DNA from: a virus
Taxonomy: Duplodnaviria; Heunggongvirae; Uroviricota; Caudoviricetes
Length of the DNA: 27,657 bases
Virus record (IMG/VR): IMGVR_UViG_2703718778_000008
Strand: one strand, 5' to 3'
Shown in pieces: positions 20,585 to 26,045 of the stretch (position 1 is its first letter; each line of letters begins with the position of its first letter). Under the pieces are notes generated by a model. That model worked only from the letters and a program-made list of their open reading frames with translations. It ran no database searches and was not told the origin of the DNA. Made by a program: the position numbers and the translations under genes.

Positions 20585-20739
20585 GGAAATTCTCCATAAC
20601 CTGGTCGTTTTTCCCATGATGGCGGCAGATAACGGTGTGTCTCAAGGTGCTTAAGTTGTATGGCGACGGGGACAACGCGGGCTGGTATCAGGCGGTATTG
20701 CTGAGGCTTAATCTTGCCCTGTTAATGTCAGGGGGTGCA
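20585..20739. promoter_or_regulatory. Divergent late promoter region between O and P (expected PO / PP, Ogr-dependent)
   Basis: Non-coding gap between divergent head and terminase operons; contains a partial dyad TGT-N13-ACA (about 20657-20675). Confidence 0.45.
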
Positions 20740-22473
20740 ATGATCCAGGATGTCTTTATTCGTATGCGGGCGAAACAGCTTTACTGGCAGGGGTATACCC
20801 CGGCGGATATCGCTCAGCTGATGGGAATAAACCAGAACACGATTTATTCGTGGAAAAAACGCGATGAGTGGGATGCCACTCCCCCGATCCAGCGGGTCAC
20901 CCAGTCCATTGATGCACGCCTGATACAGCTCACCGCCAAACCGGATAAAAGCGGCGGTGACTTTAAGGAAATTGACCTGCTGACGCGCCAGCTGAAAAAA
21001 CTGAATGACGGTCAGGGAGAACAGGCTGTTTCCGGTAAGAAGCCCCGCAGGCGCAAACTGAAAAATCACTTCACCGAAGAGCAGATTGTCGCTCTCAGGG
21101 AAAAAATCCTGCCGTCACTGGCCTGGCATCAGCGCGAATGGTACGACAACCGCCATCACCGCAACCGCATGATCCTGAAGTCGCGTCAGATTGGTGCGAC
21201 CTGGTATTTTGCGCGCGAAGCACTCCTTGATGCACTGCGTGATGATGTCTCCGCCGGGTACCAGCGCAACCAGATATTTTTGTCCGCATCCCGTCGCCAG
21301 GCGTATCAGTTCAAACACTTTATTCAGCAGGCGGCGCTGGAAGTTGATGTCGAACTGAAAGGGGGTGACAAGATTGTTTTGTCTAACGGTGCAGAGCTTC
21401 ACTTCCTTGGCACATCGGCAGCAACCGCTCAGTCGTATACCGGACACCTTAAATTTGATGAATTTTTCTGGGTCAGTAATTTTGTGCAGTTGCGAAAGGT
21501 GGCTGGCGCAATGGCAACCCTGAAAGGCCTTACCCGTACCTACTTTTCAACGCCATCGGGTGAAACGCATGAAGCTTATCAGTTCTGGACGGGGGATCGC
21601 TGGAACAGTGAGCGTCCCCGCTCAAAACGCACTGAATTCGATGTGTCTCATTCGAACCTGAAAGGGGGCGTGCTCTTCCCGGATAAAACATGGCGGCAGA
21701 TTGTCACCATTGAGGATGCAGTCGCGAACGGGTGGGAATATACGAGCATTGACGATATCCGGGATGAAAACACCGAAAGCGAATTTCGTAACCTGTACAT
21801 GTGCGAGTTCGTGCGTGATGGCGAGGCGGCGTTCAGTCTGAATGCGCTGATCGGCTGTGGTGTGGATGGATACGACGAATGGCCTGACTGGAAACCTTTT
21901 GCTGCGCGTCCGATGGGCGTGCGGGAAGTCTGGCTCGGGTACGACGCCAACGGCAGCAGCGGGAAGGGGGACTGCGGGGCGCTGTCGGTCTGCGTACCTC
22001 CACGGGTTACAGGCGGTCGTTTTCGTACCGTGGAGACGGTCAGGGTGCAGGGTATGGAGTTTGAACAGCAGGCGGCCCTGATTGAGGAATACACCCAAAA
22101 ATATAACGTGAAACATATCGGCATTGATGTGACCGGCGGGAACGGGGAGGGGGTTTATCAGATTGTGAAAAAGTTTTTCCCGATGGCCGTACCGTACAAC
22201 TTCAATATCGCCTCCAAGCGGGCACTGGTCATGAAAATGCTTCAGGTGGTGCGTGCCGGACGCTGGGAGTATGACCGCAGTGAACGTGACCTGATCCAGG
22301 CATTCGCATCGGTGCGAAAAATACAGACACCCGGCGGCTATATCACCTATGACACCGACCGCTCCCGCGGTGTGAGTCATGGGGATCTTGCCTGGGCAAC
22401 CATGCTTGCTGTTATCAATGAGCCAATTGGTGCGGAGCGTGAGGATAATCGCGGCTTTGCAATGGAGTTCTGA
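20740..22473 (+). CDS. P: Terminase ATPase (large) subunit
   Basis: About 577 aa matching P2 gpP in position and size. Start at ATG 20740 (GGGGGT upstream); ATG 20725 is an alternative. Confidence 0.85.
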   Translation: MIQDVFIRMRAKQLYWQGYTPADIAQLMGINQNTIYSWKKRDEWDATPPIQRVTQSIDARLIQLTAKPDKSGGDFKEIDLLTRQLKKLNDGQGEQAVSGKKPRRRKLKNHFTEEQIVALREKILPSLAWHQREWYDNRHHRNRMILKSRQIGATWYFAREALLDALRDDVSAGYQRNQIFLSASRRQAYQFKHFIQQAALEVDVELKGGDKIVLSNGAELHFLGTSAATAQSYTGHLKFDEFFWVSNFVQLRKVAGAMATLKGLTRTYFSTPSGETHEAYQFWTGDRWNSERPRSKRTEFDVSHSNLKGGVLFPDKTWRQIVTIEDAVANGWEYTSIDDIRDENTESEFRNLYMCEFVRDGEAAFSLNALIGCGVDGYDEWPDWKPFAARPMGVREVWLGYDANGSSGKGDCGALSVCVPPRVTGGRFRTVETVRVQGMEFEQQAALIEEYTQKYNVKHIGIDVTGGNGEGVYQIVKKFFPMAVPYNFNIASKRALVMKMLQVVRAGRWEYDRSERDLIQAFASVRKIQTPGGYITYDTDRSRGVSHGDLAWATMLAVINEPIGAEREDNRGFAMEF

Positions 22474-22478
22474 ACACA

Positions 22479-23522
22479 ATGAGTAAACGCAAAAAATACA
22501 CCGGAAAGCGGGGGCAGGATTCGCTACACGATGCACTGAAATCAACGCCTGCACTCAGCGCATTCACCTTTGATGGGCCCTATGAAGTCAGCCGCATGGA
22601 TCTCCTGGATAACATGTCATGTGCAGATAACGGGCGCTACTTTGATACCCCCATGGACTGGAACGCTATCGCCCGTGCATCCCGTCGTGCGTCCTGGCAT
22701 CAGTCGGCTTTGTACTTCAAGCGCAACGCCCTGAACGGGTGCTTTGTTCCTCACCCTCTGCTGTCCCGCCAGGCGTTTTCAGCCTTTGCGCTCGACTGGT
22801 TTGTGTTTGGTAATGCCTATCTTGAAGTGCGGCGTAACAGGCTGGGGGAACCACTCCTGCTTCGCCCGGCACTGGCAAAATATACACGCAGGGGAAGTGA
22901 CCTGGATACCTACTGGTATCTCAACGACGACGGTACGGAGTTCAGTTTCAGGAAAGGGACTGTGTGCCACGTGCTTAATCCTGATATTAATCAGGAGATC
23001 TACGGGATGCCGGAATATATCGGCGGGTTGCTGTCTGTCAGCCTGTCAAACTCAGCGGATACATTCCGCAAGCTCTACTACGATAACGGCTCGCATGCCG
23101 GGTGTATTATCTATGTAGGCACACCTCAGGCGAATGCGGAAAGTGTCGAGGCCATTAAAAAAACGCTTACGGATTCCCGTGGTCGCGGGGCGTTTAAAAA
23201 CCTGTTTCTTCATGCGCCGGGTGGTGGCAAGGATGGTGTGCAAATACTGCCGTTCCAGCAGATAACCGCAAAGGATGAATTCCTGAACATCAAGGGGAGC
23301 GCCCGCGACGATATCCTTGCTGCCCATCGTGTACCACCTCAACTGATGGGGGCAATGCCTGACGGGAATGCGGCGTTTGGTGACGTTGAGAAAGCGGCGA
23401 GGGTGTTTTTCATCAACGAGTTGCAACCTGTCATGGAGGCCATGAAGCATGTCAATGAATGGCTTGGCGTTGAGGTGATGCGCTTTAACCCCTATGCCCT
23501 GCTTCTGGATAACGCCAGCTGA
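22479..23522 (+). CDS. Q: Portal protein
   Basis: 347 aa directly downstream of P; sequence reminiscent of P2 gpQ. Confidence 0.9.
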   Translation: MSKRKKYTGKRGQDSLHDALKSTPALSAFTFDGPYEVSRMDLLDNMSCADNGRYFDTPMDWNAIARASRRASWHQSALYFKRNALNGCFVPHPLLSRQAFSAFALDWFVFGNAYLEVRRNRLGEPLLLRPALAKYTRRGSDLDTYWYLNDDGTEFSFRKGTVCHVLNPDINQEIYGMPEYIGGLLSVSLSNSADTFRKLYYDNGSHAGCIIYVGTPQANAESVEAIKKTLTDSRGRGAFKNLFLHAPGGGKDGVQILPFQQITAKDEFLNIKGSARDDILAAHRVPPQLMGAMPDGNAAFGDVEKAARVFFINELQPVMEAMKHVNEWLGVEVMRFNPYALLLDNAS

Positions 23523-23548
23523 CGCGCTTCGCTTGTCTGCTGCTTCGC

Positions 23549-23573
23549 CGGGGCATAAAAAATTTATGCCCCG
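23549..23573. terminator. Perfect 11-bp stem-loop between convergent Q and the hotspot ORF; candidate bidirectional terminator
   Basis: CGGGGCATAAA (23549-23559) / TTTATGCCCCG (23563-23573). No clear U-run on either side. Confidence 0.45.
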
Positions 23574-23587
23574 ACTCTCCAGCTCTC

Positions 23588-24091
23588 TTAACGGAATGCG
23601 GATGGCGTTCTTCTTTGCAGCTTGCTGATAATATGCATCTTCATACTGTTTACTATCGGCAGCCATTCCCTGTCACCGTCTCCGTTGATGACCACGCGAA
23701 TGGAGGTATCATCTTCCACGCGAACCCGAAGAGATACACCGTCTTTTCCGACGGAATGTAACTCCATTGCCAGGACTATGTTTACCGACTCTCCTTCATC
23801 GTGTGAGTCAACCCATGTTCTTACAGCCATCCGGAATATGTTATCTGTGTCGGTTGCAATCATATTTACCGGAAATGGCCTGAAGTCCCGATCGTTTCTG
23901 CACGGAAACCCCGTATCAACGTAACGATGATGCTCGCCGTCTTTGTCTTCCCATGTCTCTGAAGGCAATTCCAGCCACTGCTCATAAAAAGCAACCAGCT
24001 TTTCAGCCTGATTGCGCAGAATCCCTGTAACCTCCCGCCTCGCGTCCCGGCTCTTTTTGTTTGCCAGGTACAAATCGCGAAAATGGCTCAT
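23588..24091 (-). CDS. Hypothetical protein (167 aa), accessory hotspot gene
   Basis: Strong RBS (AAGGAG 6 nt upstream of ATG 24091). Acidic, no transmembrane segment, no motif I can assign. Confidence 0.6.
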   Translation of the reverse strand: MSHFRDLYLANKKSRDARREVTGILRNQAEKLVAFYEQWLELPSETWEDKDGEHHRYVDTGFPCRNDRDFRPFPVNMIATDTDNIFRMAVRTWVDSHDEGESVNIVLAMELHSVGKDGVSLRVRVEDDTSIRVVINGDGDREWLPIVNSMKMHIISKLQRRTPSAFR

Positions 24092-24711
24092 GTCGCTCTC
24101 CTTTGGTCTGTTTATGCCAGCCTGTATTCTGCGCTCACCTCATATTGTGCGCAAGTTTTCACCCGTGAATGACTGATACTTTAAATTCTATTAACTTTAT
24201 GATTTCAGTGATTTTTGTCTCTCTTTTTTATCCCGTTCGTCACGTCCGTTTCCCTCCCGATCTCCGACCTCGCCAGACGCAATCAGACGCATTCTGACGG
24301 CCTGTTTCCCTGACCATGTTTTGATGTGGTTTTTCAAAACTGGCTTCACTGCGCGCGTATCACGCGCAATACGACCCCAAATAAAGCAACCTGCCTTCCA
24401 CCCCTCAATTCGGGCGCCCTTCCCTCGTCGCCTGCGCGCTGCAATTGCCTCGTTTTTCGTGCACCGTGCAAAGTGGCTTCAGCCCGCGCCGTTACTGGGC
24501 TGAGTGGGGATGAAACACATAAGAAAAATTGTGCAATTTCGTGCACTTTTGTGCAGTTTGAAACGGGTATCTGTTTGACACTGGTACTTACTTTGCGCTA
24601 ACTTTACTCGACCAGAAATTTCAATGAATCGGATGAGGTTGTTTGTCATACGACCTCGGTTAGCTAGGTTGCCTTAATCAAAAGGCATGTTTGATACTGG
24701 AGGAGGTTAAT

Positions 24712-24747
24712 ATGAATAAAGCATTTGACGAATTTGATGGATTCTGA
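24712..24747 (+). CDS. Candidate leader peptide (11 aa, MNKAFDEFDGF)
   Basis: Near-perfect RBS GGAGGAGG (24699-24706) 5 nt before the ATG; followed 20 nt later by an intrinsic terminator. Confidence 0.3.
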   Translation: MNKAFDEFDGF

Positions 24748-24766
24748 ATGTGTTAACCTCGATAAG

Positions 24767-24795
24767 GCGGAGACTGATCTCCGCCTTTTTTATTG
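24767..24795 (+). terminator. Intrinsic terminator / candidate attenuator immediately upstream of the hotspot gene at 24806
   Basis: GGCGGAG (24767-24773) / CTCCGCC (24780-24786), loop ACTGAT, followed by TTTTTTATT. Confidence 0.65.
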
Positions 24796-24805
24796 GTAAA
24801 GAAAT

Positions 24806-25309
24806 ATGGCTATGGACTCAGTAACGATACAAATCATTAGCAATATGATAGTCCTGTTTGGTGTCATTGTTGCTATCTGTACAATTATCTATAACGTTCG
24901 TACGGCAAAAAAAACACAAACCGCTAATTTTTTATTTGAAAGTCGCCAGGATAAGGAATACCTGGAATCATTACATCTCCTCAGGAGAATTCATCGCTCA
25001 GGGAAATCGTTTCGTGCTTATGTTTTTCCTTGTGAAGGCGGGGCTATTACGGAAGAGGAGATGACCGAACGTCGCAAGTTTCAGTACATTCTTAACTTTT
25101 ACGAGAGAGTTGCAGTTAGTATCCGTGAAGGTATTTATGATGAAAGGATGATCAAACGAACGTCCTTTACAACGATTATTACAACTTATGATATTGCAGA
25201 ACCCCTGATTAAGGCTATCAGAGAAGATACTCAATCAAAAACAGCGTACCAGGAGTTTGAATGGCTGGTAAAACGATGGAAAGCTCGTCCTCTTGATAGG
25301 GATGTGTAG
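24806..25309 (+). CDS. Hypothetical membrane-anchored protein (167 aa), AT-rich accessory hotspot gene
   Basis: Markedly lower GC by eye than surrounding phage genes. N-terminal hydrophobic helix IQIISNMIVLFGVIVAICTIIY followed by a charged soluble domain; no recognisable catalytic motif. Confidence 0.6.
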   Translation: MAMDSVTIQIISNMIVLFGVIVAICTIIYNVRTAKKTQTANFLFESRQDKEYLESLHLLRRIHRSGKSFRAYVFPCEGGAITEEEMTERRKFQYILNFYERVAVSIREGIYDERMIKRTSFTTIITTYDIAEPLIKAIREDTQSKTAYQEFEWLVKRWKARPLDRDV

Positions 25310-25324
25310 TTTATTTCTTGCATT

Positions 25325-25351
25325 AGAGCGAGGTTATTGGTGCCTCGCTCT
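25325..25351. terminator. Stem-loop between convergent genes, candidate terminator
   Basis: AGAGCGAGG (25325-25333) / CCTCGCTCT (25343-25351), 9-nt loop. Confidence 0.4.
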
Positions 25352-25356
25352 TTAAA

Positions 25357-25674
25357 TTATCGAGCCGTTCTTGCGCTCATGATGCTTTGCGCCAGCAACT
25401 GCCAGCCCTCTTTCTGTTGCCCGCGCTTGTCCTGATACCTGTTTACCTGCAAGTTTCCGTGCACCAGAATCAGATCGCCTTTTCTGTGTTTTGCCAGTTC
25501 TTCGTGCTGCTTCCCGAATGCAATAAGGTAAAGCCACATTGTGGTTGGCTGTTCTGCGCCATGGCAGGGTAGTGATACCGCCAGTTGTGCCGTTGTGACG
25601 TTGGTTCCTTTGGTTGTTCTCCTTGTGTTCGGGTCTGCTGCCAGTCGTCCCTCTGTTGCAACCTGTGTTGGCAT
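25357..25674 (-). CDS. Short SSB-like OB-fold protein (105 aa)
   Basis: ...MWLYLIAFGKQHEELAKHRKGDLILVHGNLQVNRYQDKRGQQKEGWQ... parallels the E. coli SSB core (...[42 protein letters not shown]...); lacks the acidic C-terminal tail. GGGAGA upstream of ATG. Confidence 0.5.
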   Translation of the reverse strand: MPTQVATEGRLAADPNTRRTTKGTNVTTAQLAVSLPCHGAEQPTTMWLYLIAFGKQHEELAKHRKGDLILVHGNLQVNRYQDKRGQQKEGWQLLAQSIMSARTAR

Positions 25675-25706
25675 ATTTGTCTCCCGTGTTGGTTTTATTG
25701 TTGGGG

Positions 25707-26045
25707 TTAGATGGCTGGCAGATCTCCGCCAGCGCCGTAGATAAACAGAATTCGCTTCATGATTTCGCTGCGCTTACAGGCTTCGATGACTGATTTTTCC
25801 TGTTGCCATTCTGCCCGTTGCGCCAGCTCCAGTCGTTCCTTTTCCGTTAGCTTCCGGTAATGCGTTATCTTGTCCGTGTACCCGTCCACAACCAGCAGCC
25901 CTTCGCGTACCATCTTCCCGGCGGCCTGATTAATGATGGTCCTTTTCACGCCCAGTTTTTCAACCAGCTCTGGTGCGCTGAAGCGTGCGTGCGTTTCCAG
26001 GTAGCGTAAAATGATTACCTTTCCGGTCATTCTGGGTGTCTTCAT
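25707..26045 (-). CDS. Putative winged-helix DNA-binding protein (about 112 aa)
   Basis: ...ILRYLETHARFSAPELVEKLGVKRTIINQAAGKMVREGLLVV... looks like a wHTH. Start set at the internal ATG that overlaps the upstream stop (ATGA). Confidence 0.4.
   Translation of the reverse strand: MKTPRMTGKVIILRYLETHARFSAPELVEKLGVKRTIINQAAGKMVREGLLVVDGYTDKITHYRKLTEKERLELAQRAEWQQEKSVIEACKRSEIMKRILFIYGAGGDLPAI

Follow-up and report, generated by a model that had tools for sequence, protein, structure and literature searches.

What does a gene of only 11 codons do when it stands between a promoter and a terminator, directly in front of a gene that seems to have no promoter of its own? The question is raised by a locus in IMG/VR record IMGVR_UViG_2703718778_000008, a stretch of 27,657 nucleotides (nt) of Caudoviricetes DNA, here called the window, whose source is a P2-like (Peduoviridae) prophage. 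A short open reading frame (ORF), which we call the micro-ORF, is followed there by an intrinsic terminator and then by a gene for a protein of the DUF4760 family. A first reading, made from the sequence only and without database searches, had proposed attenuation control: regulated termination or antitermination, possibly coupled to translation of the leader peptide, that keeps a potentially toxic effector silent until a trigger arrives. We conclude that the micro-ORF is a real and apparently undescribed element, not a chance ORF. We favour, with a probability of roughly 45%, the reading that it is a miniature peptide gene whose terminator is chiefly a ratio-setting partial stop, giving many short and few read-through transcripts.

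The micro-ORF (24712..24747, + strand; 11 codons and a stop, ATG AAT AAA GCA TTT GAC GAA TTT GAT GGA TTC TGA) encodes the peptide MNKAFDEFDGF. Its Shine-Dalgarno sequence, GGAGGAGG (24699..24706, + strand), was read from the sequence 5 nt before the ATG, and all relatives carry GGAGG, GGGGG or AGGAG 5-9 nt before theirs. The pattern of motif plus stop codon was seen once in the window, against an expectation of 0.01. We gathered loci with related DUF4760 proteins from viral contigs, one genome per species, and from assemblies; 37 distinct loci, down to 33% protein identity, have a recognised small ORF, and in 37/37 of these that ORF ends D-E-x-D-G-F-stop or in a close variant. At protein identities of at least 62%, all loci except L026 have an 11-codon ORF (a few have 9 or 10 codons) with a strong Shine-Dalgarno sequence and the ending [FYH]-D-E-[FY]-D-[GW]-F-stop.

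Codon variation, judged on 19 distinct versions of the last eight codons, is that of a protein-coding sequence. In the D, E, D, G and F codons, positions 1 and 2 hardly vary or do not vary at all, and the third positions are split: Asp(-6) is GAC in 9 versions and GAT in 10, Glu(-5) is GAA in 8 and GAG in 11, Asp(-3) is GAT in 8 and GAC in 11, Gly(-2) is GGA, GGT or GGC, and Phe(-1) is TTC in 13 and TTT in 5. The position of the stop codon is constant across the same 19 versions. Because the variation sits at wobble positions and positions 1 and 2 are fixed, we conclude that the D-E-F-D-G-F-stop C-terminus is under purifying selection as a peptide; it is therefore not an RNA or DNA motif. The short ORF with its strong Shine-Dalgarno sequence, which the sequence-only reading had singled out as a strongly translated leader, is by its coding-type variation and its recurrence in relatives a genuine, selected coding unit.

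This pattern bears directly on another explanation, that the locus makes a small regulatory RNA of ~180 nt in which the ORF is incidental. The RNA of positions 24610-24810 is indeed predicted to be structured: it folds better than shuffled controls (z = -3.2), and its minimum-free-energy and centroid folds hold two hairpins in the 5' untranslated region (UTR) (24635-24657 and 24670-24687, + strand). It would also end in a terminator with a U-tail, and a permissive Rfam scan gave an isrP match of 27.6 bits (threshold 45; E = 0.007). That match covers the terminator only, however, and no Rfam 15 family reaches its gathering score anywhere in the window. The 5' UTR sequence is not conserved, relatives having a hairpin of other sequence at the place of the 5' UTR hairpins. 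With variation of the coding type, a regulatory RNA is a very improbable account of the locus.

The micro-ORF is kept in DUF4760 loci from Enterobacterales to Vreelandella, and also outside phage contexts. Distant versions include MKRIYRDEFEWV in Morganella, MKFRDEFEGF in Serratia and MKKCDEFDGF at a non-phage site of strain R4-368 (L060), as well as products ending ...WDENDGF in a viral contig at 41% identity, ...YDENDGL in Vreelandella at 33% identity and ...AADENDGF in a metagenomic contig. The N-terminal length of the product varies, from 8 to 28 residues, and conservation reaches the stop codon. Exceptions to D-E-x-D-[GW]-[FL]-stop or a close variant are L026, which is rearranged, L063 (DQYEEKF), L065 (QDDYNPTK) and L066, where no related small ORF and no terminator could be made out clearly. 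In L026 everything upstream of the terminator loop (upstream of 3001) is replaced by unrelated sequence, and the locus keeps only the terminator 3' arm, the T-run and the DUF4760 gene, a natural micro-ORF deletion. In the distant DUF4760 relative L064 (~480-530), MNLIVRDTDEGF-stop lies 6 nt before the called GTG start, and there is no terminator between micro-ORF and DUF4760 gene. Full-text literature searches on DEFDGF, DEHPDF, DEFEGF and DENDGF returned unrelated papers only.

How, then, is the downstream gene transcribed? The hairpin after the micro-ORF, already read from the letters as an intrinsic terminator, proves to be a conserved one, with a hairpin and T-run standing between small ORF and DUF4760 gene in 37/37 distinct loci. 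In the window it spans 24764..24791 (+ strand; terminator scan and folding), with a 10-bp (base pair) stem of arms AAGGCGGAGA (24764-24773) and TCTCCGCCTT (24778-24787), a CTGA loop and a T-run that ends at 24791; at 10 pairs, 6 of them G-C, followed by TTTTATTGGT, it is the best site that the scan found in 23500-26000. Stem sequences are lineage-specific (for example GGCGGAGA, GGCGGGG, GGTGAGTC, ATGGGGCC and GGGGAGGGC) and show double changes from GC to AU, and it is the terminator that is conserved, not the sequence of its stem. The distance from stop codon to stem is 16-18 nt in the enterobacterial clade (16 nt in the window) and 21-46 nt in distant relatives, and the hairpin lies 10-54 nt, mostly 17-19 nt, before the DUF4760 start across loci. 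The T-run of the window ends 14 nt before the ATG; the earlier estimate of about 10 nt was right about the presence of a terminator in front of the gene and short on the gap.

Upstream, a sigma-70-like promoter probably occupies 24574..24603 (+ strand), with TTGACA at 24574-24579, an 18-nt spacer and TAACTT at 24598-24603, and would start transcription near 24610. The -10 element TAACTT is too weak for a consensus promoter scan, and we propose the promoter from conservation: TTGAC(A/T), a 17-18 nt spacer and TAnnnT are kept in aligned relatives, including loci outside P2-like phages. Between terminator and DUF4760 gene the promoter scan found no promoter-like site, which bears out the earlier argument that there is no room for a promoter after the terminator and that read-through is required. 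Because a downstream promoter has no room and a conserved promoter-like element stands upstream in the same unit, we take the DUF4760 gene to be normally reached by read-through.

The locus might still hold two independent genes, a small one with its own terminator and a DUF4760 gene expressed from an unrecognised promoter overlapping that terminator or from a leaderless or short-leader mRNA. In many phages the micro-ORF does stand alone, often with its own terminator, and T4-like phages have a TATAAT element between the micro-ORF terminator and the next gene. Most DUF4760 loci, however, leave only 10-29 nt from stem to start codon, with no promoter-like site in that gap, and the linkage of ORF, terminator and gene survives to 33% protein identity. 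We consider two independent genes unlikely.

Comparison of boundaries shows that promoter, 5' UTR, micro-ORF, terminator and DUF4760 gene move as one unit, a mobile cassette at 24560..25309 (+ strand). Relatives at 82% identity share 24524-25309 with the window, and E. coli prophages of other cargo share sequence only up to ~24559. In two prophages the alternative cargo begins at the same site, directly after TTTTGTGCAGTT, and these two have neither micro-ORF nor terminator. The possibility that the micro-ORF is a fixed part of the P2 hotspot backbone was accordingly rejected, other cargo occupying the site without it. The closest E. coli match to the window is strain JNEC-KY208, at 99.7% identity over the region searched (24100-25330). 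The locus is cos-proximal, between gpQ and gpA, and this gpA-gpQ region is a defence hotspot of P2-like phages (Rousset et al., PMC9122126).

Directly left of the cassette boundary TTGTGCAATT is repeated 3.1 times (24529-24559; TTGTGCA with a 10-nt period). The repeat is kept in P2-like relatives whatever cargo follows and therefore belongs to the phage backbone near cos, where it may be a protein-binding site.

On the reading that we favour, the left part of the cassette would be a complete miniature gene, with promoter, a structured 5' UTR of ~100 nt, ribosome-binding site, 11-codon ORF and terminator, and the micro-ORF would be translated into a product that acts as a peptide. Most transcripts would end at the terminator, yielding an abundant RNA of ~180 nt that encodes the peptide only, and a minority would read through and carry the DUF4760 gene; the expected outcome is much peptide message and little effector message. 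The peptide might hold the DUF4760 effector inactive until peptide synthesis stops. The persistence of their linkage to 33% identity suggests a functional link between peptide and DUF4760 protein. It is a speculation in keeping with the layout that the peptide keeps a membrane effector in check and that other phages use their orphan copies as counter-measures. Several arrangements speak for a peptide acting in trans, namely tandem copies, copies that form the C-termini of longer proteins, copies without a hairpin or co-directional gene, and L064 with its missing terminator; these arrangements fit a product that acts as a peptide. The chemistry of the motif, acidic and with Phe at its end, speaks for the same reading.

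The presumed effector gene (24806..25309, + strand) encodes a protein of 167 residues with an N-terminal membrane helix and a helical bundle. Annotation by PGAP starts it at the second ATG, 24812, and the ATG kept in relatives is that at 24806. The protein matches Pfam PF15956 (E = 2.7e-35), its only Pfam match, in a family for which a profile search gave 2,153 representative sequences, and it belongs to phrog_2284, listed in PHROGs as of unknown function; no PADLOC-DB 2.0 defence model matches it. An AlphaFold2 model (mean predicted local distance difference test score, pLDDT, 87) has a long N-terminal helix followed by the bundle. After a hydrophobic N-terminal segment comes RTAKKTQ, which by the positive-inside rule suggests a cytoplasmic C-terminal domain. 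A fold search gave weak helical-bundle matches only, at E 0.3 or worse. The best were the EP domains of plant EDS1, PAD4 and SAG101 (Foldseek probability <=0.97, E ~0.3, template modelling score, TM, ~0.55), domains that bind TIR-derived nucleotide signals. This likeness of the model may be no more than helical-bundle similarity, and at E ~0.3 the EDS1/PAD4 match was set aside as too weak to use.

Does translation of the leader choose between alternative RNA structures? We found an anti-Shine-Dalgarno-like element, GTTAACCTC (24752..24760, + strand), complementary to 24703-24711. Both in the window and in most relatives, the minimum-free-energy fold has it base-paired to the Shine-Dalgarno region. 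The duplex is predicted at -10.4 kcal/mol, against -6.3 for shuffled partners (standard deviation 2.5); a covariation test of this helix found none, non-cognate partners reaching -9.75, and the helix is conserved only. No antiterminator competing with the terminator 5' arm appears in the minimum-free-energy or centroid folds of the window or in 30 single-sequence folds, and the RNAalifold consensus of 24 sequences, in which nothing competes with the terminator, recovers only the terminator itself and a small hairpin whose loop holds the stop codon. The micro-ORF has no codon run for a sensed amino acid; what is conserved in it is the ordered D-E-x-D-G-F motif. A ribosome at a stop codon would be expected to protect ~10 nt beyond it; the terminating ribosome would thus cover the anti-Shine-Dalgarno element but not the stem 16 nt downstream.

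These results separate the two halves of the attenuation proposal. Its architecture stands, leader ORF, terminator and promoter-less gene being in textbook order for classical ribosome-mediated attenuation, as does the need for read-through. The switch itself, in which leader translation would pick terminator or antiterminator and leave the effector off until a trigger comes, does not: neither the window nor the consensus of 24 relatives offers an alternative hairpin, what is conserved is a specific peptide and not a codon run, and the ORF stops 16-18 nt before the stem. Trp-type attenuation is disfavoured because there is no antiterminator, the stem lies beyond the ribosome, the spacing varies and L064 lacks a terminator. 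An antitermination switch by RNA folding finds no counterpart in the single-sequence or consensus folds, and we regard classical attenuation as distinctly unlikely. The ratio-setting gene that we favour would not be a trp-type switch between alternative hairpins.

The micro-ORF is also not confined to DUF4760 loci. We scanned viral contigs with back-translated patterns; adjacency of motif and stop codon is partly built into such a pattern, and the motif adjoins the stop also in the loci found through the DUF4760 protein. DEFDGF-stop gave at least 121 matches in at least 120 loci. Of the matches listed, 118 are in frames of <=45 codons from stop to stop; they fall into 51 non-redundant contexts, 25 of which have an ATG that gives exactly M-x-DEFDGF. 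A reversed-peptide control gave 20 matches in 8 contexts, nearly all at the end of one 172-residue protein. The sibling motifs DEHPDF-stop (39 loci) and DEFEGF-stop (23 loci) are likewise found mostly in short ORFs, with some fused forms such as MFDEFDGFDEHPDF. Elsewhere the motif forms the C-terminal end of longer proteins, of 21-81 residues, and some micro-ORF copies have no downstream hairpin or co-directional gene. The same peptide ORF occurs in many phages without DUF4760 and is therefore more than a leader private to that gene.

The phage types that carry a micro-ORF are P2-like, lambdoid, epsilon15-like, T4-like and T5-sized. Phages of the epsilon15/phiV10/TL-2011b type have MHDEFDGF with an intrinsic terminator between a regulator-like gene and terS, an arrangement found in L069, L217 (NC_019445 9867-13417) and about 50 further viral contigs. 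The phiV10 genome record starts 17 nt upstream of this ORF, which is unannotated in the two records whose feature tables we inspected. In the lambdoid late leader the micro-ORF lies 126-148 nt after antiterminator Q genes of two Pfam families (PF06530 and PF03589). It is found ~350 nt before holin S in L149, and other lambdoid loci differ; examples are L073, L083, L149 and L164, some of them tandem, as in MLDEFEGFDEFDGF. Lambdoid copies are often hairpin-flanked, the downstream hairpin TTCCCCCGAATTCGAGGGAA following directly after the stop, and the late leader of phage lambda has no such micro-ORF.

T4-like Karamvirus have an 8-residue or a 21-residue version between a-gt.2 and gene 47, and one micro-ORF copy lies 9 nt before a Tad2-like gene. 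In T4-like contigs of 160-170 kilobases (L081, L272 and L185) micro-ORFs occur in series: MKDEHPDF, MNDEYEKV and MNDEFDGF in L272, and MILDEFDGF followed by MPCVLDEFEGFDEHPDF in L185. In L086 and L097 the last part of a small gene is overlapped, in a different frame, by MKKKRMNDEFDGF; by eye only, the product of that gene (...GPSVYICNECVDLCNEII...) looks like the zinc-binding N-terminal domain of ClpX. Next come a hairpin and an ORF of 174 residues, of unknown function.

Several of these observations weigh against a ratio-setting peptide gene. In the completed short RNA, folding predicts that the Shine-Dalgarno sequence is paired and so sequestered, which is odd for a heavily translated message and more in line with co-transcriptional regulation. 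Copies of the micro-ORF also stand in regulatory leaders (between Q and holin, and before terS), often with a hairpin 0-6 nt after its stop, and this recurrence points to a role in cis. A DUF4760 gene lies downstream of only 17 of the DEFDGF and DENDGF matches listed, and since most micro-ORF copies have no DUF4760 gene nearby, a dedicated partnership of peptide and effector is unproven. Finally, NCBI names, PADLOC, PHROGs and the literature give DUF4760 no activity or function.

The main rival reading, and a serious one, is a nascent-peptide stalling leader, in which D-E-F-D-G-F within the ribosome slows release at the stop codon and so changes the downstream RNA. At this locus the cassette would be a portable cis-regulatory module that tunes DUF4760 expression through the efficiency of the terminator or the stability of the RNA; elsewhere stalling could favour +1 frameshifting or initiation of an overlapping ORF. 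Short E. coli ORFs that arrest at the stop codon are known (PMC11890864). Conservation that runs up to the stop as N-terminal length varies, the strong Shine-Dalgarno sequence, a sequestration that would limit translation to the nascent transcript, and the near-constant 11 codons and 16-18 nt from stop to stem in the enterobacterial clade are all in its favour, as is recurrence in terminator-containing late-operon leaders with hairpins right after the stop. The sequestration of the Shine-Dalgarno sequence, the constant geometry and the occurrence in leaders are all better accounted for by stalling than by the ratio model.

Its further support comes from the reading frames beyond the stop. Of 76 contexts, 29 have the +1 frame open for at least 30 codons past the micro-ORF stop, against 18 for the -1 frame and 13 for frame 0; a few of these are chance matches inside long genes. 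In two subfamilies a conserved +1-frame protein begins exactly at the micro-ORF stop. The first is a lambdoid KYPTRAD ORF (KYPTRADLAKANPYTERDKLSEEE...) of 45-47 codons without a methionine (L073, L157, L276, L284 and L297), where in the overlap conservation is found only in the micro-ORF frame. The second concerns T4 relatives (L244 and L249), where a-gt.2 comes after a micro-ORF of the form M-x-DEHPDF-stop and the conserved a-gt.2 protein runs on from that stop in the +1 frame; RB69 (L298 18062-18240) has MHDERPDL-stop at the same place before a-gt.2, and in T4 itself (L299 12732-12923; MVATVKDEHPTSEIDYNK...) a 1-nt deletion fuses the micro-ORF frame of a-gt.2 with the relatives' +1 frame. 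The sequences suggest +1 frameshifting or an overlapping start at micro-ORFs of the a-gt.2 type. The pattern fits frameshifting at a slowly terminating stop, and an embedded +1-frame ATG also explains it.

In the window, recoding of the micro-ORF into DUF4760 can be ruled out. The downstream gene does lie in the +1 frame, but TAA 24797-24799 closes this frame after 17 codons. A ribosome hopping onto the U-tract would meet stops as well. The closed frame is one of the points against stalling as the explanation of this locus. A ribosome at 24745-24747 has no competing RNA structure through which it could act on the terminator at 24764, the spacing is lost in distant relatives (21-46 nt) and one locus has no terminator at all. 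Stalling needs neither tandem copies nor the motif at the ends of longer proteins, and some copies have neither a hairpin nor a co-directional gene downstream on which it could act. We judge a stalling leader to be possible, on balance doubtful.

What would unite these occurrences? Tentatively, and with more doubt than confidence, we propose that M-x(1-4)-D-E-[FHYN]-x-x-F-stop micro-ORFs are an unrecognised portable element of unrelated enterobacterial phages, acting either as a stalling cassette or as a decoy peptide. As the former, a universal nascent-peptide cassette would park the ribosome at the stop codon and thereby control terminators, frameshifting or overlapping starts. As the latter, a decoy of 8-11 residues would imitate the acidic, Phe-ending tail of a protein (the SSB tip, for example, or the clamp-binding tail of a polymerase) or would neutralise membrane effectors of the DUF4760 type, serving prophages as an antidote and lytic phages for counter-defence.

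Genes of 8-11 codons are skipped by annotation pipelines, and the one described here is under clear selection and linked, within a known defence hotspot, to an uncharacterised membrane protein. Near-identical genes of 8-14 codons occur in many unrelated phages, in late-operon leaders, upstream of terS and in T4 accessory regions. A product that acts in trans would rank with the smallest functional phage products made by direct translation, and could define a peptide-antidote abortive-infection module with phage-borne counter-copies. If the micro-ORF acts in cis, it would be a widespread signal for stop-codon stalling or recoding. Either outcome would give a first functional handle on DUF4760.

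The surroundings of the cassette are those of a P2-like phage. To its left on the + strand are the genes for the large terminase (20635-22473) and the portal (22479-23522). Between the portal gene and the cos-side intergenic region, an ORF of 167 residues on the - strand (23588-24091) matches phrog_5091, of unknown function, and is annotated as hypothetical in E. coli. Further right of the locus, on the - strand, are an SSB-like gene, a MarR-like gene and a replication endonuclease. The SSB-family gene (25357-25674, - strand) is not a conserved neighbour of the cassette; its product of 105 residues ends ...SARTAR, without the acidic Phe-terminated tail of bacterial SSB.

Among known systems, the lambda late leader (pR' - 6S RNA - tR') is the region that holds a micro-ORF in several lambdoid phages, though not in lambda. 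The cassette of the window differs from it in that it is not part of a late operon and has no Q-like factor linked to it. TnaC and SpeFL are short ORFs whose translation ends in ribosome arrest at the stop codon, and the E. coli ORF PepNL likewise blocks release at its own stop codon (PMC11890864). The micro-ORF resembles these three in being a short upstream ORF with amino-acid conservation to the stop, placed before a regulated gene. It has no sequence resemblance to them, and the known cases use Rho access or RNA switches, which are not evident here.

The peptide itself recalls two protein tails. The SSB-Ct tip is DDDIPF, acidic and with a C-terminal Phe (PMC5872125), and the DNA polymerase of RB69 (gene 43, L298 8640-8759) ends KKASLFDMFDF, a clamp-binding tail whose T4 equivalent is ...EEKASLDFLFG. 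In a comparison of strings only, the micro-ORF peptides are, like both, short, acidic and Phe-terminated. MKKLFDEFDGF (L018) aligns with KKASLFDMFDF given one gap, the insertion lying next to the C-terminus, and FDEFDGF has the F, the D, an acidic residue and the final F in common with FDDDIPF but not the SSB-Ct proline. The exact SSB-Ct or clamp-tail consensus (DDDIPF, (S/T)LDFLF or LFDMFDF) is not found in the micro-ORF peptide. We treat this likeness as a low-complexity resemblance, a possible lead and not a classification.

The closest parallels in architecture are mccA-mccB and the type III toxin-antitoxin loci, and the locus belongs to neither the mcc nor the toxIN family. With mccA-mccB the cassette shares a promoter, a tiny ORF (7 codons in mccA, 11 here), an intrinsic terminator and a promoter-less downstream gene. 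Two transcripts result from the mccA terminator, a short one that is abundant and a long one that is minor, and termination there is controlled by the ribosome (PMC4231749). There is no sequence similarity between mccA and the micro-ORF. In mcc, MccA is the substrate of MccB, whereas the DUF4760 protein has no enzyme signature and Pfam and fold searches gave no MccB-like adenylating enzyme; the mcc terminator is weakened by RNA upstream of it and regains its strength when a ribosome binds, whereas no such interfering structure is predicted here.

Type III toxin-antitoxin systems (toxIN, cptIN and tenpIN) were excluded as an identification, the leader having no repeats and the locus no ToxN-like protein; the only repeat near the leader, TTGTGCAATT, lies upstream of the promoter and outside the cassette. 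The toxIN antidote is a tandem-repeat RNA and its toxin an endoribonuclease, whereas here a selected peptide is paired with an uncharacterised membrane protein. The likeness to toxIN is one of order and of setting: promoter, antidote, terminator and effector follow one another, with the ratio set by the terminator (PMC3401426), and, like the cassette, toxIN loci are found in mobile elements and phage-defence contexts (PMC3401426).

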